From: a virus
Virus record (IMG/VR): IMGVR_UViG_3300031088_000759
Reading direction: 5' to 3' (one strand)
DNA: 64,000 bases
Each line of letters opens with the position of its first letter. Within the stretch, counting starts at the first letter, position 1. The notes below the pieces were generated by a model. That model was not told the DNA's origin. It saw only the letters and a program-made list of their open reading frames with translations, and ran no database searches. The translations under genes were made by a program, and so were the position numbers. This document shows positions 3,540 through 56,525 of this stretch, piece after piece.

Positions 3540-3628
3540 TAGTCCTTGGAAGAATCGAACTCCATACCCCTCCTTCTGCCTTTTTATAACGAGGAACGGC
3601 TTAGAAGACCGCTGGCAGGGCAAAGACC
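3540..3628 (-). tRNA. atypical D-armless tRNA-Arg(UCU), 8/4 fold
   Basis: acceptor GGTCTTTG/CAAGGACT, loop CT-TCT-AA, TTCGATT T-loop, no D arm, long extra region. Confidence 0.65.
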
Positions 3629-3777
3629 ATATCATTTATTAAATTTTTGAAAGCAGTTTTAGCCGGTCTTTCGATACAACTAAAACCTTATCCAAGCCTT
3701 AAAGAACTTTCATGAAGCGGTCCATTTAAGGTCTCAAACGCTTAGCAACTTTCAAGAAGCGGTTAGGCTAAGCAAAG

Positions 3778-3864
3778 CACCAGATGAGGGAATCGAACCC
3801 CGAACTCTCCACACCCATTTTTTTCTGAGAAGGCGTTAGAAGCACCCTTGGATGTCCACCTGGC
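3778..3864 (-). tRNA. atypical D-armless tRNA-Arg(UCU), 8/4 fold
   Basis: acceptor GCCAGGTG/CATCTGGT, loop CT-TCT-AA, T-loop, no D arm. Confidence 0.65.
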
Positions 3865-3943
3865 ATACATATCAAATTATATCAATCTTTTTCTATCATT
3901 CAACAATCATATTCTAACATGTAGAAATACTTTTGTCAAATCG

Positions 3944-4023
3944 TAGCTCCCACGGGACTCGAACCCGCACGCCTAAGCACTGGTACCTAAAACCAGCGTG
4001 TCTACCAATTCCACCAAGGAGCC
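3944..4023 (-). tRNA. tRNA-Leu(UAG)
   Basis: cloverleaf, long variable arm. Confidence 0.9.
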
Positions 4024-4198
4024 ATATTTTATTTTTATTAATCTGTTCTTACTCTAATAATTATATCAATTTTTCTAAACATTGTCAAATTGTGTTTAAA
4101 AAATAATTATTGTAAAAGAAGGTGATGATAATCCTGCAAAAAACTGAACGAATATTTACTACATATTTTTCAATATTTTGCACAACCATCATTACTCG

Positions 4199-4278
4199 TA
4201 GCTCCACCGGGACTTGAACCCGGACTCCGAAGAACTTGATTTTAAGTCAAGCGTGTCTGCCAATTCCACCATAGAGCC
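4199..4278 (-). tRNA. tRNA-Leu(UAA)
   Basis: cloverleaf. Confidence 0.9.
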
Positions 4279-4493
4279 ATATATTAAAGTTCGCAAGGTT
4301 CCTATATTCGAAGGCATCGAAACTCCTGCGCATTACCGCCCGCCCGACTTTAATAAGTACACTATAACAAATTTTAAAAAACTTGTCAAATCAGCATTTT
4401 AAAAAACTTTAACAAGTAAAATGCTGCTCAATTTTGCTTGTTGTAGATTTATCTTAACATGAATACAAAACGAAGTCAAGTTAAAAAATAACT

Positions 4494-5510
4494 TCATATT
4501 TTTCTATTATTTCTATTTTTATTGCGTCTTGGTATCTCAAACTTTTTCAATAAATAATAAACATTAGGTTGAGTACAATTCAATTTTTCCGCAATTTGTG
4601 TCGTTGAAAAACCTTCATCAATATAAAGCTTCTCTAATAATTTTTTAGTGGGTTTTTCAACATAATCTTTTTTTTGGTGGTATGCTTCCTTTCGACATTT
4701 TTTTGAACAGTATTCAGCTGTACTTTTATTTATTATCTTAAAACTCTCTTTGCAAAATACACAGGTTCTGAATTTATCTTTACAGGAAACTTTTCGTGTT
4801 CTCTTTTTCTTTTTGAAAAATTTTCTTTCAAATTCTATAATTGACAAAATACCGTATTTTTCAACAATGAAGAATTTTATATCTGTTTCTTTCATTCCAA
4901 AAATTTTAGATAGCGCTTTCAAATCCTTTGTTTTGATCATTTCTTTTTTGATTTTTTCAAACGTAGGATACTCTGAAAAAACCATAGGTAGACTACCAGT
5001 TTTTGTAAAATGAGATCTACATCTTTCAGAACAATATTTTACTGAGCGATTTTTAACAAAGATTTCTGATAAGCAATAAATACAGTGTTTTTTTATTACT
5101 TTTTGAACTAAATTTTTTGTATTTATTGTTTCCCTAATTTTGGCTCGCGTTTCTTTTGTATGATAAACGCTTCCAGTGCCTGTAGGGCGTCCATTATAGA
5201 GTTTTATGCCTTCGTTTTTGAAATCATCCCAAAACCGAATTTCTTCAGCTTGAATCAATTTTGTTAAATCAGATTTTTGTTCACAAGGTTTGTCAAATGA
5301 ACTAACAATTTCAAATTCTAAATTATCAAAACCATATTTATTAAAAGCATTTTGCAAACCATGACAAGGATGACGATTACCTTTTAGTAGTTTACGGTGT
5401 TGCGCCCATCTTGCTTTAAAAGACTGAGCTGCTGTCATACCAATATATTTTTTACCAGAAGGTGAAGTAATTGTGTAAATCCCAATTTTTAAAAGATTTT
5501 TATCATTCAT
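4494..5510 (-). CDS. GIY-YIG homing endonuclease with Zn-finger and HTH C-terminus
   Basis: GIYTIT...KYIG...R motif, HTKETRAKI NUMOD3-like motif, C-terminal HTH. Confidence 0.85.
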   Translation of the reverse strand: MNDKNLLKIGIYTITSPSGKKYIGMTAAQSFKARWAQHRKLLKGNRHPCHGLQNAFNKYGFDNLEFEIVSSFDKPCEQKSDLTKLIQAEEIRFWDDFKNEGIKLYNGRPTGTGSVYHTKETRAKIRETINTKNLVQKVIKKHCIYCLSEIFVKNRSVKYCSERCRSHFTKTGSLPMVFSEYPTFEKIKKEMIKTKDLKALSKIFGMKETDIKFFIVEKYGILSIIEFERKFFKKKKRTRKVSCKDKFRTCVFCKESFKIINKSTAEYCSKKCRKEAYHQKKDYVEKPTKKLLEKLYIDEGFSTTQIAEKLNCTQPNVYYLLKKFEIPRRNKNRNNRKI

Positions 5511-5597
5511 CTAAACTCCATTTGTTAAAAATTCTATATGTTATATTTTAACAAATAAAAACAAAAATGCCTCCCATTTCTGAGAGGCATTTACAAG

Positions 5598-5669
5598 TAC
5601 CCACGGAAAGAGTTGAACTTTCTTGAGGATTTTATAAGAATCCCATCCTAACCGGTAGATGACGCGGGC
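5598..5669 (-). tRNA. tRNA-Ile(UAU)
   Basis: cloverleaf, loop CT-TAT-AA. Confidence 0.8.
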
Positions 5670-5742
5670 ATGTTCAATATTTATTTATCAATTTTTATCT
5701 AACAAATTTATTCTAACTTATTAAAATAATTTTGTCAAATCG

Positions 5743-5815
5743 TAGTTCTGATGAGATTCGAACTCATACTGTATTGATTTTAAGTCAACTTCCTCTGCCG
5801 TTGGGATACAGAACC
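5743..5815 (-). tRNA. tRNA-Leu(UAA), short variable loop
   Basis: cloverleaf, loop CT-TAA-AA, 73 nt. Confidence 0.8.
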
Positions 5816-6002
5816 ATATTTATTTATCAACTTCTTATAAAGAAACTATAGCATAAGTTTAAAAACTTGTCAAATTCATTCAATATTATAACTAACAACC
5901 TAAGATTAACACTTCTTTAACAACTATCAATATGTTAAAATTGTTTTGTACCTTCTTTTAGAAACCTAAGAAAGAAAAACATAAAGGTGGGATATAAATC
6001 CA

Positions 6003-7064
6003 ATGGCTAAGTATCATTATAATCCGAAGACAAATAAAATAGGAACTTGTCATGCGATTAAATGCCCTTTAGAGAAGGGTTCTGCTGAACATTTTAATGA
6101 TTACAACGAAGCAGTCAGGTTTTTAGAACAGGTTTTAGAAGGCTCTGAGGGGGCATTTAAAAGCCTTTCTAAGCCGAATGAGATAACTGTTCCCCTGTCT
6201 CAATTCAGTCGTGAAGAACTTGATTCAATTACTTTTTATCATTCTTCTAAACCTTATGTATTTGTGAGTCTTCATGGTCATTATGTTTCTGTTCATAACT
6301 CAAGGGGTGATCTAGCTAAAATAAGTTTACGTGAAATAAAAAACGATGATATACCCGCTTTTGTTAATAAATATGCTGCAAAGTTTTCAACAGAAGACAG
6401 CGCTCGTTTTATAAGGATTCCCGATAGCAATATTTTAGACTTAGATTTATTAGATCAGGTTTACTCTACTGATGTTGATACGAATATTGTTGTTAATGAT
6501 AAAAAGATTTTGTCTCTGGACAAGCGTAAAAGTAGAAAACAGTGGGTTTATGATTTAAAAGAAAAACACCATGGTAGAAAAATTTTTACTTCTGATGGTT
6601 CTTATATTATGAAAGGTAAGAAACCTTGCGGAGTTTATGGTTTTATGGATTTAGACGGAAACTCTCAAGTGTACACTATTTCACATGATAACTTAAAAAC
6701 TATGCATTCTAATGAACTTGAAACTCTATCTTTGTTAAAAATAAGTGAGTTTTCTAATAGCGAAGCAACAGCAATTGTTATTGATAGTGACACTGCTTAT
6801 AATGAGTTATCTGATGATGTTGATGCACCTATAAGAAACCAAAAATTATTAAAATACGAAAGAGAGATACGAGAAGCACGTCAAAAAGTTAAAGATGGCA
6901 CAATTGTTTTAGAACTAGTGAAATCTCATTCTGGAATTTTAGTAAATGATGCTATTGATGGTTTGTTGAAGTATTGTTCAACGTTTTCTAAGAAAATCAA
7001 TGTTGAAGACAGAAATGTTTTAGCAAATGAATGGGCAAAGAAAAAAGCACAGGAATGGTCTTGA
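6003..7064 (+). CDS. YH-C-C-H leader family protein
   Basis: MAKYHYNPKTNKIGTCHAIKCP...EHF leader. Confidence 0.8.
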   Translation: MAKYHYNPKTNKIGTCHAIKCPLEKGSAEHFNDYNEAVRFLEQVLEGSEGAFKSLSKPNEITVPLSQFSREELDSITFYHSSKPYVFVSLHGHYVSVHNSRGDLAKISLREIKNDDIPAFVNKYAAKFSTEDSARFIRIPDSNILDLDLLDQVYSTDVDTNIVVNDKKILSLDKRKSRKQWVYDLKEKHHGRKIFTSDGSYIMKGKKPCGVYGFMDLDGNSQVYTISHDNLKTMHSNELETLSLLKISEFSNSEATAIVIDSDTAYNELSDDVDAPIRNQKLLKYEREIREARQKVKDGTIVLELVKSHSGILVNDAIDGLLKYCSTFSKKINVEDRNVLANEWAKKKAQEWS

Positions 7065-7461
7065 TTATGCTTTTCTCTTTAAGTGCTTTTTATGCTTAAA
7101 GCAGAAGCCTTCTTCTATGGAGACTGAGAATATCATAATGTTAGAACCATAAACAGCTTTAACATTCTCTTGCTATTATCAATCGTCAAATCTTGTTCTA
7201 ATGTTGTTTTTTGTTAAATATTTATCAAAAACAGGATCTTTCATCCTGCGCTTATCGTTGATAATATTCATTAAAAGATTTGTTGAGAACATGATTAGTA
7301 TTATTGCTATAAAGAATATAATTAAAATGATCATTTTTGTCCTTTAAATTTTAAACACAATTCGAGCCAGTTTCGACCTAGCAACTGAAACTTATGAGAT
7401 TTCTATTTTTCTTTAAAATATCGAAGTGTGTTAAAGCTAAGAGCGATAACATCATGCTCAG

Positions 7462-7532
7462 AGCGAATAGGGAGAATCGAACTCCCATTATCTGCTTGGA
7501 AGGCAGAAGTTTTACCACTAAACTATATTCGC
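7462..7532 (-). tRNA. tRNA-Gly(UCC)
   Basis: cloverleaf. Confidence 0.9.
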
Positions 7533-7719
7533 ATGTCCCGAAGACTCATATTTTTCAATACTACTCTCCGGGCGCAGATTTTAACTACAATGTTCTTATC
7601 ATATAAGCTGAGCAGGCTGAATCAAAGAGCTAACTAATCCAGACATGGGACTCTTTATCCATTTTGGCTTGTTCAGCCTTACCTTTTTCAATGTTTTCAG
7701 CAAAGGCTTAACTCAGCAG

Positions 7720-7793
7720 TGGACCGGATGGGACTCGAACCCACAACATTCTGCGTGCAAAGCAGACGCTCTACCAATTGGAGCTACCAGCCC
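7720..7793 (-). tRNA. tRNA-Ala(UGC)
   Basis: cloverleaf, G3-U70. Confidence 0.9.
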
Positions 7794-7921
7794 TTATATT
7801 AAGTTGTCATCTTTATATATCAACAAAACATATTCTAACATAGTTTTATTAAAATTGTCAAATTTTTGTGTTTTTTTATAGATAATTAGATAAGAGTATT
7901 TACTTTAAAAAAGAGGTTGTT

Positions 7922-8968
7922 ATGAGTTCTGTTCGATATCACGTTAATCCTGAGTCTTTTAAACTTTCAATATGTTCAGCAAAAGTGAAATGTCAGTTTG
8001 CTGGAAATCCTGATGCTAGGCATTTTGAGGCTGACGAAAAAGAAGAAGCCCAAAAACATATTGAAAACCTTCTTGAAAAGAAATATACAACAAACTCTTC
8101 AATATCTAAACCAGAACAAGATTTGAATATTGAAGAAGGCATAGATAGTGCTTATCGTTATGGTTTTACTGATGAAACAGTTTCTTCTGAAGAATTTGAG
8201 ATACAAAAGAGAAAATATTTTCAGAATTTTCAAAATTTGAATAAGGAAGAAAAAGATACGTTTCAGCGAAAAGAACTAGCAGTTATGCTGAATAGACTTA
8301 AATCAAGAGTTATGCTTGAAAAAGGTGACCTTCAAAAAGTTGATATCATTCTTGCTTCAAATAGGGGCAATAACTCCACATCAGAGCTAACTGTAGCTCT
8401 TCGAACTCTCAATAAGAATGTTTTAGACAATATTTATAAGTATAATCTTACTGATGATGAAGTTGTGAACATAGTAAGAGATTATGATGTCCTTACAAAC
8501 TATACTTTTTTTGCGAAAGATAGTTCAATGGATAGTTATGAAAGAAGATTACTAGAAAACAATGAACCTGAAATGTTGTATAGCAGTAAATTAGATTTTG
8601 ATACTTTTTCAGAAGAAGATGAGGAAAAGTTACGATTAGCCTCAAATAATGCTATTAATCGTGATGACATCTTAAGAAAAGTAGACAATGCTTTTTACAA
8701 TCCGATTAATATTGTGAAAATGTCGGTTCAAAAAGCAGAATTGAAAAGAGCATTAAGAACAAACGATAATACAAAAATTGCGAAAAACTTAGGTGCTTTA
8801 AGAGATCTTCAATATAATGTACTTGATAAATATTCAAAAACCGGGCGAGTATGGAGCGATTTTTCTAGACCAATGAACAGTATTTTAGAAAAATTTAGCT
8901 CTGTACAGATAAGAAAAGCTTTACAAAGAAATGAAGAGAAATTGAATGATATTTCAAGACAACAGTAA
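7922..8968 (+). CDS. YH-C-C-H leader family protein
   Basis: MSSVRYHVNPESFKLSICSAKVKC...RHF leader; GAGGT RBS. Confidence 0.8.
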   Translation: MSSVRYHVNPESFKLSICSAKVKCQFAGNPDARHFEADEKEEAQKHIENLLEKKYTTNSSISKPEQDLNIEEGIDSAYRYGFTDETVSSEEFEIQKRKYFQNFQNLNKEEKDTFQRKELAVMLNRLKSRVMLEKGDLQKVDIILASNRGNNSTSELTVALRTLNKNVLDNIYKYNLTDDEVVNIVRDYDVLTNYTFFAKDSSMDSYERRLLENNEPEMLYSSKLDFDTFSEEDEEKLRLASNNAINRDDILRKVDNAFYNPINIVKMSVQKAELKRALRTNDNTKIAKNLGALRDLQYNVLDKYSKTGRVWSDFSRPMNSILEKFSSVQIRKALQRNEEKLNDISRQQ

Positions 8969-9559: not shown

Positions 9560-9578
9560 TTAACGATTAATTCATAAA

Positions 9579-9629: not shown

Positions 9630-10547
9630 TTACATTGAGTTATCGGTAAGTTTCACAACTTGAAAAGTTTTTGCTGGTATTGGTGCAGCTTCTTTTTTGC
9701 CATTCCATCCATTAGGATAATGTAATCCATTGAATTCTTCTAATAATTTCTGTCGTGATTCGTCAATTTTTATAGATTTTGCTGAAATTCCATTTACTGT
9801 AAATTTCATATCACGGGGCAATAAACGTTCTTTCTCAAAAGTCAGAAGATCACCTACCCTCTCTTCATTTTGTTGTAGACTTATTCCTTTGTTGGTTTCT
9901 ATTTCCAATACGATAAAGTTTCTGCTGCGGGAATGTTTTTTCGCATATGCTGCTATGAAAGATAAATCTTCGGTAGTACTCATAAAACCAGTATCAGTGT
10001 ATTCATTTCCTTCTTTGAAAGTTTTGTTCAATAATTCTTCAACATTAACTTTTTTATCAAAGTTTAGATAACGATAGAGAGTTTTTGTTTCGCCATTACT
10101 ACCAAATCTTTGAATAATGCTGTCTAATGTTTGTATGTCTTTCCAATTTCTCTCTATTTTTTCTGGAGTGATTTCATAATCTCTTGGTTCATTATGCAGT
10201 AGTCTATTCATTGAAGATGAACCCGCAAAAGTGTAATGCGATAGTGTGTTCTGTTCAGAAAGATTAAGTTGAGCTTCCATGCTTTTAAATTCTTCAATCA
10301 TTCTTTTTATTAATACCTTGTTCTCTTCTTCTGTAATACCTTTTATTCGCTCTTTGCGGGGTTTCGAGAGAGATTTGAAGGGTTTGTGCGCTTTGTTCAA
10401 TTTCTGTTCATTAAAAGCCAACGCTGCTTCTTTATTGTCAAAATGTTCAGTAATTTCTCCATTATTATCTTTTAGAGGGCAATTACCTTCTTTAGCGCGG
10501 CAGATATTGACTCTTCCGGTTTCATTGTTTATGTGGTACTTTGTCAT
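9630..10547 (-). CDS. YH-C-C-H leader + ADP-ribosyltransferase (VIP2/Alt-like, R-S-E clade)
   Basis: TLYR, GFMSTT, FEKERLLPR motifs; conserved leader. Confidence 0.8.
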   Translation of the reverse strand: MTKYHINNETGRVNICRAKEGNCPLKDNNGEITEHFDNKEAALAFNEQKLNKAHKPFKSLSKPRKERIKGITEEENKVLIKRMIEEFKSMEAQLNLSEQNTLSHYTFAGSSSMNRLLHNEPRDYEITPEKIERNWKDIQTLDSIIQRFGSNGETKTLYRYLNFDKKVNVEELLNKTFKEGNEYTDTGFMSTTEDLSFIAAYAKKHSRSRNFIVLEIETNKGISLQQNEERVGDLLTFEKERLLPRDMKFTVNGISAKSIKIDESRQKLLEEFNGLHYPNGWNGKKEAAPIPAKTFQVVKLTDNSM

Positions 10548-11391
10548 CTTCTAATATTACCCCCTCATTATCAACTGCTATTAATTGAACTTTATCAAAA
10601 CTTCCAAAAACATCCGAGTACATTCTTTCTTGTTTTCCGACCACAATATATCGAGAATTACGAGGCAATAGAACTTCTGATTCATGTGATACACTACTGA
10701 TAGAAGTAATGTTTAAACCTTGTGGAGTGATTATCTCAAAAAGAATTCCGTGTTTGTCCATATTTGTGAAATTTCCAGCGATTATGGGGTTTGTGGAAGT
10801 GCTCTGATAGCCTTTAAAGCTTACTGTTTCGCCTAATTGAAGATTGTTTATCGAATATGTTTCAGCATTATCTATGGAAACACCTCTGTAGAGAATTCTT
10901 TGCTCAGTTTTTCTATTAAGAGCTTCATCTATTAGATTAACTTGTTTTAATGTTTTTTCATCATTTTTATACTCTTGTGAATAAACTTTTTCGTTGAACC
11001 ATTCTGTGTATCTATCACTGTACCCTTTAATTGCTTCTATTGTTTCTTCATCAAGGTTTTCGCATTCTTTTTTAGATTGTTTCCATTCTTCATCAGTAGA
11101 TAAACCATCAGGGTATTCATCATTTGACCATTCAGTGAAACCGAATTTTTTATAGGATTCATTGTCAAGTTTGTCTGTTTCAATCTTTCCTTGTATGTTA
11201 ATTACTTTGTTATCACTTTTTTCTTTTCGAAGCATTGGGAAAGTTTCTAAATGTGCTGTACTAGCTTCAATAGCTTCTTTTTTGGTTGTGTAATGGGTGA
11301 TTTCTTCCCCATTTTCAGAAAATTTACATTTCTTCCTTGCAAAACAGCGTCCAATTTTTCCGGTTTCAAGATTGATATGGTATTTTGACAT
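10522..11391 (-). CDS. YH-C-C-H leader + ADP-ribosyltransferase (R-S-E clade)
   Basis: LYRGV, GYQSTS, HESEVLLPR motifs; conserved leader. Confidence 0.85.
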   Translation of the reverse strand: MSKYHINLETGKIGRCFARKKCKFSENGEEITHYTTKKEAIEASTAHLETFPMLRKEKSDNKVINIQGKIETDKLDNESYKKFGFTEWSNDEYPDGLSTDEEWKQSKKECENLDEETIEAIKGYSDRYTEWFNEKVYSQEYKNDEKTLKQVNLIDEALNRKTEQRILYRGVSIDNAETYSINNLQLGETVSFKGYQSTSTNPIIAGNFTNMDKHGILFEIITPQGLNITSISSVSHESEVLLPRNSRYIVVGKQERMYSDVFGSFDKVQLIAVDNEGVILEDDKVPHKQ

Positions 11392-17714: not shown

Positions 17715-20411
17715 ATGTGCTATATGAATGATGAGAGGTTTATTTTGAAAGTTTTAGAAACATTCTTGCGAGCTGGTGAAGGTGACGAGCGTAGAAAGTT
17801 AGAAAAAGTAGCTGATAGAATCATTGCGCTTGAAAAAAAGATAGAACAGTTATCCGATGATGAGCTAAAGAGCAAAACAGAAGAATTCAAGAACAGATTG
17901 ATTAGTGGTGAAAAACTGGATAATCTTACGGTAGAAGCCTTTGCTGTTGTTCGTGAAGCTGCATATAGAGTACTTGGATTAAAAGCTTATAAAGTTCAGC
18001 TTATGGCTGGATTGACTCTTCACGCTGGAAAGATAGCAGAACAAAAAACAGGTGAAGGAAAGTCTTTAACAGCTGTGTTTCCTTCTTATCTTAATGCTTT
18101 GACTGAAGAAGGTGTTCATGTAGTTACTGTTAATGATTATTTGGCACAATATCAAGGTCAACAAATGGGGCGTGTTTTTTCAGCTTTAGGAATGTCAACA
18201 GGTATTATGCAAAATGGTCAATCTATTTCTGATAGGCGTTCTCAATATGAAGCTGATGTTACTTATGGAACAAATAATGAATTTGGTTTTGACTATTTGA
18301 AAGATAACATGGTACAAAACTTAAATGAAAAAGTTCAAAGAGGACATACTTTTGCTATTGTTGACGAAGTTGACTCAATTCTTATTGACGAAGCAAGAAC
18401 ACCTTTGATTATATCCGGTCCTGCTGAAAGGCAAGTTGATAAATGGTTTAACATATTCGCAAAAATAGCAAAAACTCTTGTGATTGATGAACATTATGAA
18501 GTAGATTTAAAGAAAAGATCTGTTTCAGTTCTTCCCGAAGGGATTTCTAAAGTTGAAGATGCTTTGGGTATTAATAATCTTTATATTAAAGAGAACACTC
18601 CTCTTATTGGTTATTTGAACAATGCTGTAAGAGCAAAAGAGTTGTTTAAACTTGATAAGGATTATGTTGTCAGGGATGGACAAATTCAAATTGTTGACGA
18701 ACATACAGGTAGAATACTTTCTGGAAGAAGATACAACGATGGAATTCATCAGGCAATTGAGGCTAAAGAACGTGTTGAAGTTATGCCTGAGAACCAGACT
18801 TATGCTACGATTACTGTACAAAATTATTTCAAGCAGTATAAAAAGCTTTCTGGAATGACAGGTACAGCAGAAACAGAAGCAGCTGAATTTTCTGGGACTT
18901 ATAAACTAGGGGTAGTTCCGATTGCTACGAATAAAGCAGTAAAAAGAATAGATCAGCCTGATAAGATTTATAGAACAGAAGAGGCTAAGTTCAACGCGGT
19001 TGTTGAAGAAATTGCTAAAAGACACAGTACTGGACAGCCTATTCTTATAGGAACCGCTAGTGTTTCTCGTTCAGAATATCTTTCAAAAAAGCTACATGAA
19101 GCTGGTGTTGAGCATAATGTATTAAACGCTAAACAACACGCTAAAGAAGCAAGTGTAGTAGCATTAGCGGGGACTAAAAACGCTGTAACAGTTGCTACTA
19201 ACATGGCCGGACGTGGAACAGACATTATTCTAGGCGGAAACGTAGACTTTATCACTACACAAATCCTTAACGATAAAGGTCTTACTCCCGAAGGCACTCC
19301 TGAACAATACGAAGAAGAGTGGGACAAAGTATTTAAAGAAGTTTCCGAAAGAGTAGAAAAAGAAGCAAGTGAAGTAAGAGAGCTTGGTGGCCTTTATGTG
19401 ATTGGAACAGAAAGGCATGAATCTAGAAGAATTGATAATCAGCTAAGAGGAAGATCAGGTCGTCAGGGAGATCCTGGAGAGTCAATTTTTTACTTATCAT
19501 TACAAGATGAGTTAGTAAGAAGATTTAATTCAGGAAATGCGTTGGATAGCATTATTTCTCGTGTAGTAGATGATAGTGTTCCTATTAGCGGAAAATTTGT
19601 TTCAGGTTCTATACAAACCGCTCAAAAGCAAATTGAAGCACTCAATTATGAAACTAGAAAAAACATTCTTAAATATGATGAAGTTTTGACGAAACAGCGC
19701 GAAATTCTTTATTCTGATAGAGACAACATCTTAAGTGGTTATGATCTTATGAAAACAGTCATTGTTTACATGAAAGACGTTACTGCTTCTATTGTTGACA
19801 AAACTGTATCTAAGAAAAAGGTCTCAGAAGAAGAGCTTGATAAAATAATCAAGTTAATGTCAAAAATCTATCCTATTTCAATAACAAAAGATTCACTAAC
19901 CGAAAAATACGGTGATGTTGAAAATATATCTCCTGAAACTTTAAAGACTGAGCTGATGGAAGATATGGATAAAGCCTATGACCGTCGTGAAAAAGAAATT
20001 GGATCTGAACGCATGAACGAATTAATTTCTAAAGTCATGATTGATGTTATGGATAAAAGATGGAGAGAACATCTTTATGAAATGGATTATTTGAAAGAAG
20101 GTATTGGTCTTCGTGCTATGGCTCAAAAGGATCCATTAGTAGAATACAATGAAGAAGGCTATCGTATGTTCAAAAATCTTCGTGAAATAGTTAAAGAAGA
20201 TGTTGTAATGTATATGTTCAATGCTGAAGTCTCTATTAAAAATGTTGAAAAAATGGCTAAAGAAGTCCCAGAAGAGGTACAAAAATTACTTTCTAGTGCT
20301 TCAAAAAATGAAAAAATTGTAAAAATTCTGGAACAAGAAAAACAAAATCAACAGAATACTAATCGAGCTGAACGTAGAAACAATAGAAAAGTTAAAAAAG
20401 CAACTAACTGA
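17715..20411 (+). CDS. secA: preprotein translocase ATPase SecA (actinobacterial type)
   Basis: LRAGEG, KTGEGKS, VDEVDSILIDEARTPLIISG, TNMAGRGTDI, RRIDNQLRGRSGRQGDPG; start may be a few codons downstream. Confidence 0.95.
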   Translation: MCYMNDERFILKVLETFLRAGEGDERRKLEKVADRIIALEKKIEQLSDDELKSKTEEFKNRLISGEKLDNLTVEAFAVVREAAYRVLGLKAYKVQLMAGLTLHAGKIAEQKTGEGKSLTAVFPSYLNALTEEGVHVVTVNDYLAQYQGQQMGRVFSALGMSTGIMQNGQSISDRRSQYEADVTYGTNNEFGFDYLKDNMVQNLNEKVQRGHTFAIVDEVDSILIDEARTPLIISGPAERQVDKWFNIFAKIAKTLVIDEHYEVDLKKRSVSVLPEGISKVEDALGINNLYIKENTPLIGYLNNAVRAKELFKLDKDYVVRDGQIQIVDEHTGRILSGRRYNDGIHQAIEAKERVEVMPENQTYATITVQNYFKQYKKLSGMTGTAETEAAEFSGTYKLGVVPIATNKAVKRIDQPDKIYRTEEAKFNAVVEEIAKRHSTGQPILIGTASVSRSEYLSKKLHEAGVEHNVLNAKQHAKEASVVALAGTKNAVTVATNMAGRGTDIILGGNVDFITTQILNDKGLTPEGTPEQYEEEWDKVFKEVSERVEKEASEVRELGGLYVIGTERHESRRIDNQLRGRSGRQGDPGESIFYLSLQDELVRRFNSGNALDSIISRVVDDSVPISGKFVSGSIQTAQKQIEALNYETRKNILKYDEVLTKQREILYSDRDNILSGYDLMKTVIVYMKDVTASIVDKTVSKKKVSEEELDKIIKLMSKIYPISITKDSLTEKYGDVENISPETLKTELMEDMDKAYDRREKEIGSERMNELISKVMIDVMDKRWREHLYEMDYLKEGIGLRAMAQKDPLVEYNEEGYRMFKNLREIVKEDVVMYMFNAEVSIKNVEKMAKEVPEEVQKLLSSASKNEKIVKILEQEKQNQQNTNRAERRNNRKVKKATN

Positions 20412-21377: not shown

Positions 21378-22008
21378 TTATTTCATAAGATTATCAAGCT
21401 TTCCGTTTAAAGCTTTTTTCATTGTTGTTTTCTTGTTCTGTGGACCTTTTACTTGATCTCGCCATTCAGTCCATACAAACGAAACTTGGGAATCATCAAT
21501 TTGACGTTGATTGTTCATTTTTTTGTGTTCTTGAACCATACTATGATTTTGTAGTTTGTCTTCTAACCTTTGACGAGCTACACTGCGATTCTTGTGTTGA
21601 GAACGGTCTTCTGTGGCTGTAACAACTGTTCCAGAAGGTATATGTGTCATTCTTACACCGCTATCAGTTTTGTTCCTATGCTGTCCACCAGGGCCGCTAG
21701 CTCTGAACGTGTCAATCCGAATATCCTTGTCAAATAAAACATAAGAAGCATTGGATTTTTTATCATCCATTACTGAAACCATTATCGTTGAACTATGTCT
21801 ACGATTAGATTTTTCCGTAGCTGAAACTCTTTGAACACGATGAATACCAGAGAAAATTGCGTAAGCGTTGTCAAAGACGCTCCAAAACCTTTGTTGTTCC
21901 TTCGTTTACAACATCTTTCCCACTGTGCTTTGACACAGAAGCAGCAAACTCTGATGCAAACAATTCAGCATCAGCACCACCTTCAGCAGGTCTAATTTCC
22001 ATACGCAT
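21378..22008 (-). CDS. short class-I peptide chain release factor homolog, +1 programmed frameshift at 21876-21870
   Basis: ATG 22008 with AGGAG; [16 protein letters not shown]; GGAG-CGT-CTT-TGA-C; +1 frame gives [20 protein letters not shown] and [14 protein letters not shown]; ~209 aa. Confidence 0.85.
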
Positions 22009-24646: not shown

Positions 24647-24902
24647 AAACGTAGAAAATTATTTTATAATGCATCCTACAAAACATTACTGTCCTGTCAC
24701 AGTCGGTGATGACTACAGATTGACAGATACGGTATCACCCCGCTATCGCAATGATATGTTCAGTATCATTACTATAAGATAAATCATTTAAAAATCTCTT
24801 ACAAATTATTGCCTTTATGACGGACAATTCGCTAACCTTCCCGTGGGCTAGTCTCTTTAAATGTTGAACCAATTTTGAACAACAGCTTGGTTCTGCTGTT
24901 AG

Positions 24903-24973
24903 AGCAGGAGGTAGGATTTGAACCTACAAATCTATTCAGGTAGAATAACGTATTACTTTTATACTACTCCTGC
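24903..24973 (-). tRNA. tRNA-Gly(ACC), rare anticodon
   Basis: GCAGGAG/CTCCTGC acceptor, U73, loop CT-ACC-TG; weak D arm. Confidence 0.55.
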
Positions 24974-26195: not shown

Positions 26196-26414
26196 AAAAT
26201 TAACAAAATATTATCTTCGAAATAGCACCAGCCCCATCGTTGGTTAAACATTGAGAAAGGGAATCGAACCCTTTTATTTCTATCCTATAAGGAACCTAAA
26301 CTAAAGAACCACTTTATCAAGGTCTCAAATATTCCATTAATTCGTGAATATTTTATTGTACCGGACAGGCTATCACCAGAATAGGTGGACCTTATCTTTC
26401 CTCAAATATTCTCG

Positions 26415-29169: not shown

Positions 29170-29243
29170 TGGTACCCCTGACAGGACTCGAACCTGTGCA
29201 TCTTCTTTAGGAGAGAAGTGTTCTTCCTCTGAACTACAAGGGC
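29170..29243 (-). tRNA. tRNA-Arg(CCU)
   Basis: cloverleaf, encoded CCA. Confidence 0.88.
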
Positions 29244-29450: not shown

Positions 29451-29454
29451 TAAG

Positions 29455-29529
29455 TTGTCCCGGATGGATTCGAACCATCGCATGACACGGTTTTCAAACC
29501 GCCGCTCTACCAGGCTGAGCTACAAGACG
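29455..29529 (-). tRNA. atypical tRNA (Phe GAA-like, irregular anticodon loop, C1:A72)
   Basis: good D and T arms; anticodon hairpin GCGGT-TTGAAA-ACCGT. Confidence 0.55.
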
Positions 29530-32907: not shown

Positions 32908-33111
32908 TTTCGCTTCCCCGATAAGATTCGAACTTACTCTTCGTAATGCCTATAGAACATCAGAAGTTTCCATACTGACTAAGGAAATAATTTCCAGTAC
33001 ATACTTTCACGGCGTTCCTTCCGCTATCCTTTGCTGAGAGATCCTGCTAATAACTGGAAACCCTTATTAGCATTTTATAATGCCTCCTCTTATCGAGAAT
33101 GACATCAGGTG

Positions 33112-33965: not shown

Positions 33966-34179
33966 ATGTAGAAGCAAATTAATACTATAAAATAAAGCAA
34001 TTATTAAAACTTTAAAACGCCTTACAAAACCACTTCCTAATACTCCCACAATAGCGGTCTTTTTCAGGGTATAAAAATGTTGTTTTTGAAGGTTTTTCTA
34101 AGAAACGCTATTTTAATGTCCCTTGCTTGAACAGAATAAAATTTTTATCAAAATCGCTTATAGAATTTTAACTATTCAG

Positions 34180-34261
34180 CGGAAGACACGGGATTCGAAC
34201 CCGCAACCCCTTTCGGAGCGACGCATTTCTAGTGCGCTTGCTGACCACTCGCCTATCTTCC
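34180..34261 (-). tRNA. tRNA-Ser(AGA), A34
   Basis: long arm, G73, loop CT-AGA-AA. Confidence 0.82.
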
Positions 34262-39448: not shown

Positions 39449-39812
39449 ATTTTTATATAAAATTATCAAAACTTCTAACAACCTTACATAAATTATTATA
39501 TCAAACTTTTTCAAACTTGTCAAGTAAATGAAAACTAACTATCAAAGTTCTTCTAATTCTTGAATATCATCATCAGTTAGTTCAATCTTCTTGTCAAAAA
39601 GACGAACATCAGACTTCAAAGCATTGTCTAAAATTTCTTTACCTAAAACTTTATCAATATTCATATATTATCCTTTTCAATAAATATTAAAAAATGCTTT
39701 CCCTCGCTTGTTTTCTCTTAGGAAAATTCACCTGCTAAGGCTTTTTTGCTAAACCTTTCGCTGATTCTAAAAACAAGAAAACCAGTTTCATCTATTTAAC
39801 AAACATTTTTCG

Positions 39813-39892
39813 TAGTTTTCCCAAGATTCGAACTTGGATCTCCTGACGCCCTAATAGGTTAGTCAGTTGCTCTTGCCTCAAGCTAGAAAACT
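39813..39892 (-). ncRNA. tRNA-like RNA with expanded anticodon loop
   Basis: acceptor, D and T arms intact; 14-nt loop containing CCTATTAGG. Confidence 0.5.
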
Positions 39893-41898: not shown

Positions 41899-41985
41899 TA
41901 TAATCTCCTTAAAAATAAACAAAATGTTTTTTAACATTCTTTTGTCATATTCAATAATGCTTATTTTTGAAAGATTTTATAATCG

Positions 41986-42059
41986 TAGTCCTGGAGGGAT
42001 TCGAACCCACAACACACTGATTCTTAGTCAGCGTCCTCTACCAGTTGGGATACAGAACC
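41986..42059 (-). tRNA. tRNA-Leu(AAG), A34, short variable loop
   Basis: loop CT-AAG-AA; body similar to 5743-5815. Confidence 0.78.
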
Positions 42060-46473: not shown

Positions 46474-46710
46474 AATATAGTTATCTTTCTTAAACGTATA
46501 AATGTAATTCAAAAGTAAAAAGGAAACAGTAATAGAGTTAATTAAGTTCTATGTATTTTTACAACACTCCTGTTTCACAAGTGTCAAGATGGATCTCCCA
46601 GCTCTATCCATCTGATCACATGATTGGCTTCTCCTCGCAAGACAATAACGTTTGTTGCTAAGTATCTTAAGTTTTTAGAACAAATATTATCGAATTACTA
46701 TGTGATTCCG

Positions 46711-46780
46711 AGCGGGCGAGAAGAATCGAACTTCTACTTTCAGCTGGTCTGCTGATGTTCTACCATTAAACTACTGCCGC
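46711..46780 (-). tRNA. Gly-type tRNA with 6-nt anticodon loop (ACC-like)
   Basis: GCGG acceptor start, U73; loop AGACCA. Confidence 0.5.
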
Positions 46781-49535: not shown

Positions 49536-49722
49536 TGGCAGGTAATGGATTCGAACCACTCCAGCATTTCAAAGAGATCAACCTCTGAAACAATCAAACT
49601 AAACACATTTCATTACTGAACATCAGGTACCTTAATGTTCTTTAACTACTTTTGTATTCCCGCTTGATTTAGTGCAACTATCTGACCGATAGCCTCTGCT
49701 TCACCACGCAAAGCAACCTACC
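49536..49722 (-). ncRNA. ~190-nt tRNA-like RNA with long insert in place of anticodon arm
   Basis: GGTAGGT/ACCTGCC acceptor, D-like arm, GGTTCGAATCC T arm. Confidence 0.5.
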
Positions 49723-51177: not shown

Positions 51178-51217
51178 GTATTCATTATTAAATATCAAAA
51201 CAATTTTTTAATACACG

Positions 51218-51431: not shown

Positions 51432-51503
51432 AGCGGGTAGCGAGAATCGAACTCGCGTCGTCTGCTTGGAAGGCAGAAGTAATAGCCGTTATACCATACC
51501 CGC
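51432..51503 (-). tRNA. tRNA-Gly(UCC)
   Basis: cloverleaf. Confidence 0.9.
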
Positions 51504-51601
51504 ATGATTGGCTGTTCCTGACATTTACCCGCATGTCCAAAATACGGGCACCAATTCTAAACTATTTAATTATATTGATTAACCTTTTATCAAGGCTTAG
51601 T

Positions 51602-51672
51602 ATACTAAATGGGACTCGAACCCATGCTGACACTCCTTCTCGGAGCCGCTCTAGCCAACTGAGCTATTAGTA
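51602..51672 (-). ncRNA. tRNA-like RNA with non-canonical anticodon loop
   Basis: canonical D and T arms; hairpin CTCC-GAGAA-GGAG. Confidence 0.5.
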
Positions 51673-51868
51673 CAATTTTTTTGACAATGAACACCATACT
51701 TGAAGAAACCCTAATCTCTTCTCCGATTTGAAACATTGCTTTATTCAAAAAAGTTAGGGCAATTTTGAACAAAGAAAATAAATAACGTTTTCTGGAATCG
51801 AACCAGGTCGCCATCTTCCCGGATGGTTATTAACGAGCATTGCCATTATGCTAAAAACATTATTTAAG

Positions 51869-51942
51869 TACCCCCCCTGGGACTCGAACCCAGACTCTGC
51901 GGATTAAAAGTCCGAAGCTTTAACCAATTAAGCTAGAGAGGC
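51869..51942 (-). tRNA. tRNA-Lys(UUU)
   Basis: cloverleaf. Confidence 0.88.
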
Positions 51943-52059
51943 ATACATTATAAAACACTATTAAATTATCAATCAACTTCTTATGAAACTATTCTATCAA
52001 ACTTTTTCCTGCTTGTCAAACTGTTTTAAAACTTTTTTGTCAAACTGTATCTTCAAAAA

Positions 52060-52090
52060 TCTCGTTATTACTCTGAATAAGTCCTCAACT
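52060..52090 (-). repeat. 31-nt leader motif copy 5
   Basis: TTATT-CAGAGT-AATAA variant. Confidence 0.85.
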
Positions 52091-52192
52091 TTTGTTGATA
52101 CACATATCTTAACATACTGCATAGTAATTTGTCAATTTACAAAATATATTTCTTGAATTTATCAGCCTATCATTTAGCAATGATGAATTCAG

Positions 52193-52265
52193 AGCCAATG
52201 GTGGGAATTGAACCCGACGACTTCCATCGTACCAAGATGGCGATCTACCACTGATCTACATTGGC
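52193..52265 (-). tRNA. tRNA-Thr(GGU)
   Basis: cloverleaf. Confidence 0.85.
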
Positions 52266-52273
52266 AAGGTTTA

Positions 52274-52342
52274 AACTATGGCAGGATTCGAACCCGCATG
52301 AACCGCTTCACAAGCGGCAGTTTTGCCGTTAAACTACATAGT
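52274..52342 (-). tRNA. tRNA-His(GUG)-like, atypical acceptor
   Basis: loop TT-GTG-AA, D and T arms. Confidence 0.6.
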
Positions 52343-52555
52343 AGGAAATGCTTTCACACACCCTTTTCACATCCGCACTGAAATATCGACTTTCAGATAC
52401 CTCTCTCGAGCGCATTAATCCAGTTTATGCTATACGGAACACCATATGACTACTTATTCACAATCACTATACACTATGATCACTTGTGTACAACTTTTGT
52501 AAATTTTCTTCACTTAGAGGAAAATTAATGAATTGTATACTATCATTAATTTTCG

Positions 52556-52627
52556 TAGTCATGGAGAATTTCGAAATCCCAACATCTTACATGTAAAGCA
52601 AGCGCTCTTCCTTTGAGCTACATGACT
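52556..52627 (-). tRNA. tRNA-Val(UAC)
   Basis: cloverleaf, variant T arm. Confidence 0.78.
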
Positions 52628-52924
52628 GTGTTTTAAGTTATGGTAGGAATCGAACCTACTTAAAGTGCTCCCACGCACCCTGTTTTTACCATTAAACTAC
52701 ATAACAGGAGAAACTTTCATCAACCCTTTTTTCATCGTTATCAGGTGCTCGATAGCCTGAATACCTGTTCCCAGTGCATTATCCCGATTTTATGCTATAA
52801 CGAAAACCATATGATTACTTGTTAAAACTTCCATAACATTATGTACACTTGTGAAACTTCTTTTTTAACTTTTGTCACTTAGGTAAAGTTCAACAAGAAT
52901 GTTAACACTGCTTATTAAACTTCG

Positions 52925-52996
52925 TAGTCATGGAGAATTTCGAAATCTCAACCCCTTGCGTGTAAAGCAAGTGCTCTTCCTTTGAGCTACACGACT
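52925..52996 (-). tRNA. tRNA-Val(UAC)
   Basis: tandem paralog of 52556-52627. Confidence 0.8.
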
Positions 52997-53342
52997 AAAA
53001 TTCTATTGTTTACCCGCGTGCAACCTCTAACACCGGCCCTCTCAACTTTTATTGAGTGTGCTTCCTTTATTTCAGCTTCTTAGATGAAGCCTTCCTTGCT
53101 TTACACCACACAATAGAATAAGTTTTTATAAAATTATCAAACATCTTTTCTTACATTAGAAGTATAACATATTAAAAAATAATTGTCAAGTTTTAAAAAA
53201 TAGTAAGGAAATCATAGTCTGCACTCTCAGAAGCAACTCATCAAACAATCGCACTAACGACAACAATTTACTCACCGGTTTTCAACTGTATCGCACTACC
53301 TGTTGAGGCTATTCTTGAGCAAGGTAGTTTTCTTTCCATACG

Positions 53343-53415
53343 TGCCATTCCTCGGGGTCGAACCGAGAACCTTCCGGGCTTCAACCGGACGCTCTTCCAA
53401 CTGAGCTTGAAAGGC
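53343..53415 (-). tRNA. tRNA-Phe(GAA)
   Basis: cloverleaf. Confidence 0.87.
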
Positions 53416-53530
53416 AAACCCTCGTAAACGTCTCATCTAGAGAAGTCTACAAGGAATAAACTTGTATAAAGCACTCAGAACTGCTCTATATGCCTTTTTA
53501 AGCGACTTATAGGTTCTTCTTCACACTTCG

Positions 53531-53839
53531 TGGCGCAGACCGGATTTGAACCAATGATATGACATTATGAGCGTCATTTGAATTCTCCCCGTAGCTAAAG
53601 CCAGGGGATTCTTACCTCAAACAGCCTGCGCCAGCGAACCAGCAACAGGTCTTACATTCTCAACAGTAAAAGGGTTAAAACCAGCCCTATATAAAACATT
53701 ATATCAAATAATCTTGATATAATGCTGTTTGTATGAAAATTGTTTTTATTTTTGTTTAATTGTTTTCCTCCCCCATAGCTAAAAGCAAGGGGCATCCAAC
53801 AACAAAACGATTGGTGATACCGAACTTCACTACCGCGCA
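53531..53839 (-). pseudogene. tRNA-Met(CAU) interrupted by mini IS element
   Basis: removing 53578-53813 restores D arm GTGA-AGTTCGGTA-TCAC then anticodon arm TGACG-CTCATAA-TGTCA. Confidence 0.85.
53578..53813 (-). mobile_element. non-autonomous IS605 derivative carrying left end + omegaRNA + right end
   Basis: near-identical to 27883-27930 and ~29005-29128; follows TCAC, ends TTCAA; no ORF. Confidence 0.88.
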
Positions 53840-53933
53840 TCAACTTAGGTAACGGTAACCCGCTGAGAGAACAATTAATCCCTAAGTAAATTAATCGCTA
53901 ATATTTTTCAATATTCTGTTATTTCACAGCCCG

Positions 53934-54006
53934 TGGACACTATGAGAATTGAACTCACCACACCGATCTTGCAAGGATCAGTCGCCCCCTTGGTACATGA
54001 GCGCCC
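53934..54006 (-). tRNA. tRNA-Ala(UGC)
   Basis: cloverleaf, G3-U70. Confidence 0.8.
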
Positions 54007-54504
54007 AAATGTTCAACAATCAAAAATTATTCAACAAATTTTCCAACACTGACTTCAGTATAACATATTTCATAACATTCTGAAGTTTTTACAGCGATTT
54101 TATCAACTCTTTGGCAAACTACTGCGAGAAAACTTAGCTTTAGACTTCGAAGCTTCTGCTGCTTTTTTCCACAATTCCTCATCATTAAGAACAGCCAATT
54201 CATCATCAGTCAAATCTTTATTTTCTTCAAACTTTTCTACATTATTATTCATACTTCGCTCCTAAGTTTTAAAAAATCCAATATCATTTGCTTAGACATA
54301 GAAAAATGTGAACACCCAAATGATCAGGTGTAATGTAAGTCAATTTCTTTAAATCTAAATGTAATGATACGTGATCATTAAAAAATTATAAAAACTTGTT
54401 AAATAACCTTACCTTTGTATTGTTGTTCTTTTTGAACCAATATTTCAAGCAACTGATACAAGCAACTGATAATAGCCAAAGGTATTTATTGTTATTGTTT
54501 AGCG

Positions 54505-54591
54505 CGGAGAGCAAGGGAATTGAACCCTCACCGCTGTTACACGGACATGTTTTCGAGACAAGCACGACAAACCAATATTCGACTACTCTCC
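54505..54591 (-). tRNA. tRNA-Ser(CGA)
   Basis: long arm. Confidence 0.85.
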
Positions 54592-54627
54592 AAAGCAACA
54601 ATTGCTAATACAACATATATTGTATCG

Positions 54628-54700
54628 CTCCCAGGGTAGGAATCGAACCTACGATGGCTCTGATTCAAAGTCAGAGTTGCGTGCCAGCACACACCGGGGA
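54628..54700 (-). tRNA. tRNA-Gln(UUG)
   Basis: cloverleaf. Confidence 0.85.
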
Positions 54701-54730
54701 ATAAATATTTTGAACAATTTTTATTCAAAG

Positions 54731-54810
54731 CGGAAGGCACGGGATTCGAACCCGCAACCCTATCGGGCGACCGATTTCAAGTCGGTGTGCTAACCATTCG
54801 CCTACCTTCC
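54731..54810 (-). tRNA. tRNA-Ser(UGA)
   Basis: long arm. Confidence 0.88.
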
Positions 54811-55053
54811 AAAATTCTTGAAGACTGTTGTTTTTCTCAGCTCTTTCACAAGGTTGCCACAAAAATTAAGACCATAGTTTAGAGGGCTTGTGATCCCACT
54901 TCCACTAATTCTCATCAATGGTATCAGATCTTCAAGAACAAGATTATTGAAAATACACTATTAAAATTATCAAATATTTTTAAACTTATTATGAATAAGT
55001 ATAACACAATATTTTTCTTTTGTCAAATTTATTGTTTAAATATTTGATAAATG

Positions 55054-55125
55054 AGCCTATGGTGCGAATTGAACGCACGACTTCCATCGTACCAAGATGG
55101 TGATCTACCACTGATCTACACAGGC
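55054..55125 (-). tRNA. tRNA-Thr(GGU)
   Basis: cloverleaf. Confidence 0.85.
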
Positions 55126-55148
55126 AAAATATGTTTGAAAATTTTAAG

Positions 55149-55224
55149 CACGCCTGACAGGATTTGAACCTGCATGTATCCGTTAACCTTTCAGCTGGTT
55201 CGAAGCCAGAGGGTTTACAAGCGC
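55149..55224 (-). tRNA. atypical re-wired tRNA-Arg(UCG)
   Basis: acceptor GCGCTTG/CAGGCGT, loop CT-TCG-AA, no D arm; AACGGATA placed 3' of anticodon arm. Confidence 0.7.
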
Positions 55225-55547
55225 ATATCTTACACTCCGCTAAAAGTATAAGAAAGGTAATCAGACTGAGAATACATCTTCTTATCAGCAAACTTTTGTC
55301 AGATTATGGATTCCTGACGTTTCCACGATATCCCTACCGTATTTGCCATGCCTGGTAAGTTAAGCTCACCAATCTTTATGTTATACGCTACTCCACAGAT
55401 TTCAATTCGACAAACAGTTGCAAGCCATTCATCTGCATTACTTTCTTATGAACTTTACAAAACCTTGCGAGCTTCATAAAGACTTGATTCTCAAAGAGTC
55501 AAGCATTAAGGCACTTTCGCACATAACAGGAAAAGTCTTTCGCTTTT

Positions 55548-55618
55548 TACAATATACAGGAGTCGAACCTGTAACGCATCGTTTTGAGACGATTGTTCTG
55601 CCATTGAACTAATATTGG
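55548..55618 (-). tRNA. Trp-like tRNA with 6-nt anticodon loop (CTCAAA)
   Basis: D arm AGTTCAATGGCAGAAC; stem ATCGT/ACGAT. Confidence 0.5.
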
Positions 55619-56028
55619 GAATAATGACTGGAGATGTGCTTTTCCATGAAGCTTCGCAACCTTTGGGATTACAAAATACTTCACACCTCTCCCGCTTTCA
55701 TTGTCACACTACTCACAGTCAAAGCTTTATAATGAATTCGCCAATCCATTAATAAACTTTATAGTATCCGCCTTTGATTGACAGTCTCAGACTAAAATAC
55801 CTTCCTACAAGAAGTTTCTGTTTATTGTAACCCACTCATCTACCCTGCGTGGATAGCTTTCTTTACACCGATTGGCTCTGAGAAAGATGTGGCAACTCAC
55901 AAAAACCGTATCCAGTTCCACCTGAATACTTAACTCATAGAAATTGTATGATTTACCTTTTATCAAGGCGATAGATTGTCACACTACCTTTCACTAACTT
56001 ACGCTAGCTTATGCGTCATACCGCTTTG

Positions 56029-56108
56029 CGGAAGGCACGAGACTCGAACTCGCAACCCTATCGGGCATCATCGTTCCAGGATGACTGCTTTCCATTCGCT
56101 TACCTTCC
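56029..56108 (-). tRNA. tRNA-Ser(GGA)
   Basis: long arm. Confidence 0.87.
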
Positions 56109-56274
56109 AGGAGATCCACCAAGGTTTTCAGCCAAGATCTTTTTAAACCGTTTTGAAAAGTTTAAAATGTGTTATGAATATTTTACACCAGTGGATAATG
56201 AAAGATTGTCATAAATTTAATTAAACAATTCTTTAAAAATTCAGGTATAAATCACGAAAGATTCACTCCGAAAG

Positions 56275-56346
56275 TGCCTCCACAAGGATTCGAACCTTGG
56301 ACCTGTCGCTTAAAAGGCGAAAGCTCTACCGCTGAGCTATAGAGGC
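56275..56346 (-). tRNA. tRNA-Lys(UUU)
   Basis: cloverleaf. Confidence 0.9.
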
Positions 56347-56449
56347 ATAAACAATATTCTGCTAAGAAGGAATTGTTAAACCTTGAATAATTGCTTTATT
56401 TAATTCGTCTTTATCAATCATATTTTTACCTTACTTTTACCCCGCTAAG

Positions 56450-56525
56450 CGCGCCCAAAGGGACTCGAACCCCCATGTATCCATTAGCCTTTCTACTCGT
56501 CCGTAGCGAGAGGGCATATAGGCGC
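56450..56525 (-). tRNA. atypical re-wired tRNA-Arg(ACG)
   Basis: acceptor GCGCCTA/TGGGCGC, loop CT-ACG-GA, no D arm; AATGGATA placed 3' of anticodon arm. Confidence 0.7.

Follow-up and report, generated by a model that had tools for sequence, protein, structure and literature searches.

The viral DNA stretch IMGVR_UViG_3300031088_000759 of IMG/VR (64,000 nucleotides (nt), called the window at its full length) carries four genes for transfer RNAs (tRNAs) with arginine anticodons in which the D stem and D loop are joined to the rest of the molecule by a different backbone route. It is almost certain that the topology is re-wired as described below and that it is shared by two widespread families, here named type I and type II. 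To our knowledge, the order acceptor-D-anticodon-variable-T has been treated as universal for mature tRNAs. No description of the re-wired topology was found in the full-text literature searched, which largely excludes subscription papers and older work on phage tRNAs, and the two forms apparently represent an undescribed, widespread tRNA architecture. The boldest reading is that they are translation-competent tRNAs of new topology which the host accepts but which shape-reading nucleases or toxins directed against tRNAs for Arg and Ile leave uncut, a form of immune escape; taken as a whole, its probability is put at roughly one in three.

Re-wired tRNA genes in the window

The original prediction, made from the letters of the window, described four RNAs with a very short segment where the D arm should be. 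All four were confirmed, on the minus strand, with 7, 8, 7 and 7 nt between the acceptor and anticodon stems. Their parts are as follows:

3540..3628, minus strand: type II re-wired tRNA-Arg(UCU), copy 1; 8/4 branch, anticodon stem of 6 base pairs (bp)
3618-3614 (CUGCC) with 3580-3576 (GGCAG): D helix of UCU copy 1; A20 equivalent at 3571
3594-3591 (CCUC) with 3570-3567 (GGGG): crossing helix of UCU copy 1
3778..3864, minus strand: type II re-wired tRNA-Arg(UCU), copy 2; 8/4 branch
3854-3849 (CAUCCA) with 3817-3812 (UGGGUG): D helix of UCU copy 2; A20 equivalent at 3808
3829-3827 (CUC) with 3807-3805 (GAG): crossing helix of UCU copy 2
55149..55224, minus strand: type I re-wired tRNA-Arg(UCG); 7/5 branch, UGAAA linker
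55215-55212 (AACC) with 55188-55185 (GGUU): D helix of the UCG gene
AACGGAUACAU: relocated D-loop of the UCG gene; A20 equivalent at 55179
56450..56525, minus strand: type I re-wired tRNA-Arg(ACG); AGAAA linker
56515-56513 (GCC) with 56489-56487 (GGC): D helix of the ACG gene, closed by U-U
AAUGGAUACAU: relocated D-loop of the ACG gene; A20 equivalent at 56480

Each gene has an acceptor stem, an anticodon arm with a 7-nt loop, a T arm and a 12-bp acceptor branch, and the proposed pairings CUGCC/GGCAG, (A)CAUCCA/UGGGUG(U), AACC/GGUU and GCC/GGC are all present. With no D stem-loop between the acceptor and anticodon stems, the four genes fall outside canonical RF00005. Nevertheless, the label "D-armless" had to be given up: a D stem and a D loop exist and are merely connected differently. 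Nor do the genes form one family of four, as had been supposed; the UCG and ACG genes are type I and the UCU pair belongs to the pseudoknotted type II. In the two type I genes AA(C/U)GGAUA does stand ahead of the T arm, but the D-loop motif is not confined to them, since GGA also occurs in the UCU pair; the base after GG is A in all four.

It had been expected that standard tools would miss these genes, and ARAGORN indeed calls none of them, nor does Rfam at the gathering score. Below threshold, 55149-55224 reaches 28.2 bits against RF00005, aligned only with the D arm deleted, 56450-56525 reaches 22.8 bits, and 3540-3629 shows a tRNA-Sec resemblance (19.8 bits). Structural descriptors gave exactly four matches in the window and none in 200 local shuffles (12.8 Mb), and model R1 found no additional type I gene there.

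Type I genes

The type I order is (i) a 7-bp acceptor stem; (ii) U8 A9 and five nt; (iii) the anticodon arm; (iv) an NGAAA linker; (v) three to four nt ending in U; (vi) AA-N(N)-GG-N20...CAU; and (vii) the T arm, so that one D-stem strand and the D-loop are placed 3' of the anticodon arm. Covariation shows that the short 5' segment replaces strand 22-25 and pairs around the anticodon arm with the strand replacing 10-13; because of this pairing the cloverleaf becomes a three-way junction.

Homologs were collected from IMG/VR. A first, looser pattern scan showed the re-wired fold in just 3 of 120 loci. Of two patterns placed on the 3' part only, one gave 120 stretches, with 9 of 64 parts scanned and an estimate of about 870, and the other gave 116; 221 of 249 type I pattern matches carry acceptor, anticodon and T stems. 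A descriptor run over all fetched loci, with a filter that removed three canonical false positives, gave a total of 238 distinct genes (294 copies) with the anticodons UAU (79), UCU (41), UCG (38), ACG (35), GAU (21), CAU (12), CCU (8), GCG (2), CCG (1) and UAC (1). Since GAAA and CAU were part of the search patterns, their conservation is partly built in, and variants with other linkers turned up in the locus flanks; likewise, the constancy of U8, A14, A15 and the U before the T stem, all required by the descriptor, is not independent evidence. The pairing of the relocated helix was not demanded.

All 233 aligned type I genes form both central relocated pairs, whose covariation is on a par with that of the acceptor, anticodon and T-stem pairs. 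On the tree, 22 of 22 and 24 of 26-27 changes were joint, and the pairs score 417 and 329, the 95th percentile of a tree-based null being 151 (60 simulations). A plain MAFFT alignment of 27 type I representatives shows the relocated helix paired in all 81 cells, both sides having changed in 29 of them; none of 500 shuffles matched it, and the signal collapses on sliding. RNAalifold, unprompted, gives the same three-way junction. The re-connection of the D stem and loop put forward in the original prediction has, hence, strong covariation support in the homologs.

L123 and L195, two 7/5 genes whose linker is long and which may form a CC/GG pairing, look intermediate between both types. A further UAU gene (L531) has the acceptor stem, a 7-nt 5' segment and the anticodon arm, with only about 6 nt ahead of the T arm and without the relocated D-loop; it is possibly a truly D-armless or deleted form.

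Type II genes

Type II combines the type I re-wiring with a second helix, overlooked by the original prediction, that crosses the D helix. The 8/4 assignment of the UCU pair was correct (8-bp acceptor, 4-bp T stem). A UCU pattern scan gave 118 matches, among which 57 distinct genes have 8/8 acceptor pairs, an anticodon stem and a 5' segment of 7-8 nt. In every one of these 57 the 5' segment pairs 5/5 with the strand preceding GG, which was not a selection criterion; permutation gave a mean of 17 and a maximum of 28. The distinct 5-mers of this D helix pair in 19 of 19 cases, against 2.8 by permutation. These figures rest on the 57-gene test, which replaced an unadjusted MAFFT pair count (63.6%, and 76.4% when slid by one) whose rows were out of register and whose columns were off.

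Adding an anticodon-free scan and the flanks, the family amounts to 67 distinct genes: UCU (58), CCU (3), GUA (3), CCA (1), CAU (1) and UAU (1). The rare genes with GUA (L506, L489, L252), CCA (L486), CAU (L514) and UAU (L548) have Tyr, Trp and Ile-type anticodons and, in consequence, the pseudoknotted scaffold is not restricted to Arg. Pair 8:65 is present in 67 of 67 (the descriptor demanded seven of eight acceptor pairs).

As to the second helix, the first bases of the linker past the anticodon stem pair with the bases just 3' of GG-N20 (GG-A20 in the Arg genes) in the setting of an 8/4 branch, for instance as AGC/GCU, GGC/GCC, GAC/GUC, ACG/CGU, AUC/GAU or CC/GG. The helix has at least 2 bp in 65 of the 67 genes. 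The sum of 189, with three registers allowed, compares with 62 +/- 10 by permutation (maximum 100 in 10,000) and, with one gene per triplet class, 44 compares with 11.5. The core is a pseudoknot because this second helix and the D helix cross.

Amino acid identity and probable replacement of canonical tRNAs

PMC9976931 tabulates bacterial identity determinants, among them A20 in the case of Arg and both A73 and U20 in that of Ile. With position 20 assigned from the motif and not from structure, the relocated GG is followed by A in 124 of the 125 type I and 60 of the 61 type II Arg genes. In the type I genes with Ile-type anticodons (112 of 238) it is followed by U in 109, and A73 occurs in all 112. 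The window genes carry the tRNA-Arg class A20, C35, U/G36 and A/G/U73, again following PMC9976931. An encoded CCA is found in 86 of 125 type I Arg genes and 58 of 67 type II genes; among the 112 type I genes of Ile type, only 11 have it.

The CCU gene had been named as the only canonical Arg tRNA, and ARAGORN does list a single Arg tRNA in the window:

29170-29243, minus strand: canonical tRNA-Arg(CCU), which completes the Arg set

The four re-wired anticodons would read 404 of the 445 Arg codons in 34 open reading frames (ORFs), while CCU reads 36. AGA, the commonest Arg codon (217 of 445), is served by two re-wired genes. In 64 loci with at least 10 canonical tRNAs, a canonical gene of the same anticodon accompanies the re-wired gene in 5 of 74 cases and occurs in 105 of 310 cases without one (Fisher p 6e-7), a comparison weakened by the fact that the loci are 4-30 kb long and not independent. 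In crAss-like phages, the slot Trp-[Ile GAU]-Met-His is occupied by a cloverleaf Ile(GAU) in crAss001 and by a re-wired Ile(GAU) in tikkala.

On this evidence, the four window genes are likely charged with Arg by the host synthetase and likely decode AGA, CGA and CGU/CGC where canonical tRNAs would otherwise do so, and the re-wired genes in general are probably decoding tRNAs. The idea of functional Arg tRNAs contained in the original prediction gains from A20, the discriminator base, the CCA encoded in homologs and the replacement of canonical genes; as a description of the whole group it is too narrow, as about half of type I is putatively of Ile type.

Possible mechanism and alternative explanations

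Residues 9 and 22, about 45 and 10, and the end of the D-loop and 48, which the three new backbone links would join, are neighbours in the core of the canonical L-fold. The usual L shape is likely kept, with an elbow that would be rebuilt by U8-A14, A15-U48 and the contacts of G18/G19 with the T loop. In type I, the 5' strand would span 10 nt between the upper end of the D helix and the anticodon loop, like 22-31 in a normal tRNA. Such a fold would offer host enzymes a normal acceptor end, anticodon and A20, and host RNase P, the CCA enzyme, ArgRS or IleRS, and EF-Tu may process it. The architecture could have arisen by an internal duplication of approximately positions 10-45 followed by complementary losses.

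The reason for the re-wiring is the least certain step. Tentatively, the changed core would keep translation going when nucleases or toxins that read the D or variable region destroy Arg and Ile tRNAs; that the re-wiring serves an anti-defence purpose at all is a working proposal, somewhat more doubtful than not, and the evidence for escape from tRNA-targeting defence is circumstantial. According to PMC13096335, the variable region can be recognised by defence nucleases and can also be the means by which a phage tRNA resists.

Several points weigh against the reading as decoding tRNAs of a re-wired fold. In single-sequence folding, the minimum-energy folds beat the re-wired folds by 1.4-5 kcal/mol, and the third relocated pair of type I is borderline (score 160, p 0.05, just at the null threshold). 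Only TCT and TCG singly reach p<0.05 in the replacement test; coexistence does occur (the above 5 of 74), A3Wally having both forms for ACG. The link between anticodon and position 20 amounts to one joint change on the full type I tree, and to 13-15 changes on a weak tree built without those columns. The anticodon and T loops are canonical, so nucleases that cut in these loops would probably still cut. Besides, odd phage and bacterial tRNAs that can be charged and yet are not used in translation are described by Mukai 2017 (PMC5389517).

The latter species, together with the odd restriction, for a general decoder, to mostly two amino acids, would suit tRNA mimics, charged or not, that act outside decoding as nuclease decoys, ArgRS/IleRS sponges or Y-RNA-like partners of RNA-repair proteins. 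The Chryseolinea lacunae copy lies in an RNA-repair cluster (two RNA ligases, WYL, SPFH, RtcB), and one bacterial copy is directly upstream of a TROVE gene. Mimicry is, nevertheless, improbable: all six Arg-decoding anticodon types are present, canonical counterparts are depleted near re-wired genes, the swap in crAss-like phages is slot for slot, acceptor stems vary freely yet remain paired, and no conserved or dedicated partner gene was seen among 49 adjacent upstream ORFs scanned (32 downstream ORFs were outside the scan). Still less credible, and indeed very improbable, is that the genes are degenerate pseudogenes, or precursors that are spliced or permuted to canonical tRNAs. The array does hold several damaged tRNAs, and the four window genes lack an encoded CCA, but so do most canonical tRNAs of the window (CCA in only 5 of 81 as parsed), and every stem is kept by compensatory change across hundreds of homologs. 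By the logic of the segment order, which no cyclic permutation of the cloverleaf yields, neither intron removal or other excision nor circular permutation restores a canonical tRNA, the outcome that the original prediction had named as fatal to it.

A different matter is why the genes spread. They may be decoding tRNAs whose re-wiring is neutral, or was carried along by homing-endonuclease cassettes that replace a cut tRNA gene, with no anti-defence value. This explanation, which is possible if uncertain, addresses the reason for the spread and is compatible with the mechanism set out above. HNH or endonuclease VII genes end a few bases from re-wired genes in Mildred21, A3Wally and TunaTartare, and an HNH gene lies 3' of the UCU pair of the window. 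Against it, the adjacent upstream ORF is of a homing-endonuclease family in only 4 of 168 re-wired IMG/VR genes (49 with a scannable ORF, canonical-tRNA neighbours being outside the scan), and the bias towards Arg and Ile is left unexplained.

Relation to known tRNAs

The re-wired genes share with canonical tRNA-Arg and tRNA-Ile (RF00005) the acceptor, anticodon and T arms, U8, A14, G18G19, A20 (Arg), A73 (Ile), the 12-bp acceptor branch and the location in arrays. They differ in that there is no D hairpin 5' of the anticodon, the D helix encloses the anticodon arm, the D-loop joins the T stem and scores are below gathering. Because they likely do a tRNA's job, they are classed here as a variant of tRNA.

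A comparison with the 8/4 allo-tRNA classes, which had been suggested, holds for type II in part. Going by PMC5389517, type II resembles the (8/4) allo-tRNAs and the tRNA-Ser/His and tRNA-Sec-like forms in the 8/4 branch, the 6-bp anticodon stem, the occurrence in phage clusters and being missed by standard tools. Allo-tRNAs, however, retain a D stem-loop together with a long, nested variable (V) arm and have mostly Ser or Ala identity, whereas type II has no Sec-like D hairpin or nested V arm, its V-like helix crosses the D helix and its identity is Arg. Metazoan mitochondrial D-armless tRNA-Ser(AGY) also has a short connector where the D arm is expected, but there, according to PMC7609411, the D arm is lost; in the re-wired genes the D stem and loop persist in a new place and still bear identity, and bacterial machinery is required. 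T5 tRNA-Tyr against retron-Eco7/Septu is likewise a phage tRNA with an altered variable region and a possible escape route; it stays a cloverleaf, with resistance shown in PMC13096335, while for the re-wired tRNAs resistance is hypothetical.

The permuted tRNA genes of red algae and archaea are cyclic permutations that are processed back to normal tRNA. They share a non-cloverleaf order with the re-wired genes, which are instead block transpositions with intact 5' and 3' acceptor ends. Two natural families that change the order would show that the translation machinery reads the shape of a tRNA and not its backbone route, and the genes of cultured phages make this question testable. The re-wired folds are also new scaffolds for tRNA engineering, and may indicate undiscovered defences against Arg and Ile tRNAs.

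Distribution and annotation

Type I genes occur in the Streptomyces phages Mildred21 (UCU annotated as "tRNA-OTHER", UCG as Phe, ACG unannotated), TunaTartare and EGole (Ile GAU annotated as Leu), and also in Microbacterium A3Wally, Rhodococcus NiceHouse and crAss-like tikkala. In A3Wally (L122, MZ150783), the deposited tRNA product names mostly disagree with ARAGORN for the same anticodons. ARAGORN overlaps 7 of 219 re-wired genes in the longer loci. Phage tRNA sets suffer, in this way, systematically from missed and wrong calls (unannotated, "tRNA-OTHER", Phe, Leu), a bias that carries over into codon and anti-defence analyses. Type II genes were identified in Aeromonas AhSzw-1, Escherichia Av-05 and Acinetobacter AM101, and blastn with type II matched 342 phage records, 304 of them from Vibrio phages and many near-identical. 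Blastn of the UCU pair of the window against cultured phages gave chance matches only, and that of the UCG gene against plasmids gave none. The T5 tRNA region contains no re-wired gene, and its annotated tRNA-like RNAs, considered as members, do not belong to the family.

A pattern scan of 185,579 prokaryote genomes gave 121 loci, 46 with a type I gene; 44 of the 46 are metagenome-assembled records, the exceptions being Chryseolinea lacunae and Pedobacter nyackensis, where the gene is in a prophage-like region. Around Chryseolinea, model R1 matched 2 of 61 genomes, with 78 candidates scored in each. Given the predominance in viruses and the few prokaryote loci, re-wired tRNAs are mainly a viral element, lacking in almost all genomes searched with these patterns.

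In Bacteroidota, type I Ile genes adjoin WYL regulators, RNA ligases, RtcB, SPFH or TROVE (L706:3609-15383; L628, L629, L646, L648; L588), and their adoption into RNA-damage responses is possible. A role of bacterial UAU copies as substitutes for TilS was discarded: tilS is present in five of five genomes.

Genomic setting

The window has a G+C content of 34.8% and 81 tRNAs (ARAGORN), every one on the minus strand, which amounts to a phage-like tRNA array. The array also has homing endonuclease, thymidylate synthase, DHFR and Alt-like genes. The following features lie in or near it:

3911..3939, minus strand: sigma-70-like promoter match TTGACA-17-TAGAAT (11/12, extended TG; a consensus match only), 47 nt upstream of the UCU pair
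9630-11391, minus strand: two Alt-like ADP-ribosyltransferase genes
17715-20411, plus strand: SecA, full-length
21378-21782, minus strand: RF-1-domain peptidyl-tRNA hydrolase
55263-55691, minus strand: GOLLD RNA (Rfam match), between the two type I genes
62334-63089, minus strand: NucS, full-length

GOLLD extends past its Rfam match, as RNA contigs reach approximately 55968-56017; those from four runs of a single soil metatranscriptome study cover 55324-56017 with an identity of about 99%. They miss both type I genes and the adjoining canonical tRNAs, short RNAs being usually lost from such data.

Five tRNA-like genes have an anticodon loop of 6 or more than 7 nt (29454-29529, 39812-39892, 46710-46780, 52635-52706 and 55548-55618, the last inside GOLLD with a loop of 6 nt). 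Degenerate T-arm elements lie near 26250-26340, 32910-32990, 49540-49620, 51780-51860 and 60470-60560. Finally, tRNAs with A34 anticodons (ACC, AGA, AAG twice, AGG), unusual for bacteria, are found at 24902-24973, 34179-34261, 41985-42059, 57960-58044 and 59984-60059.

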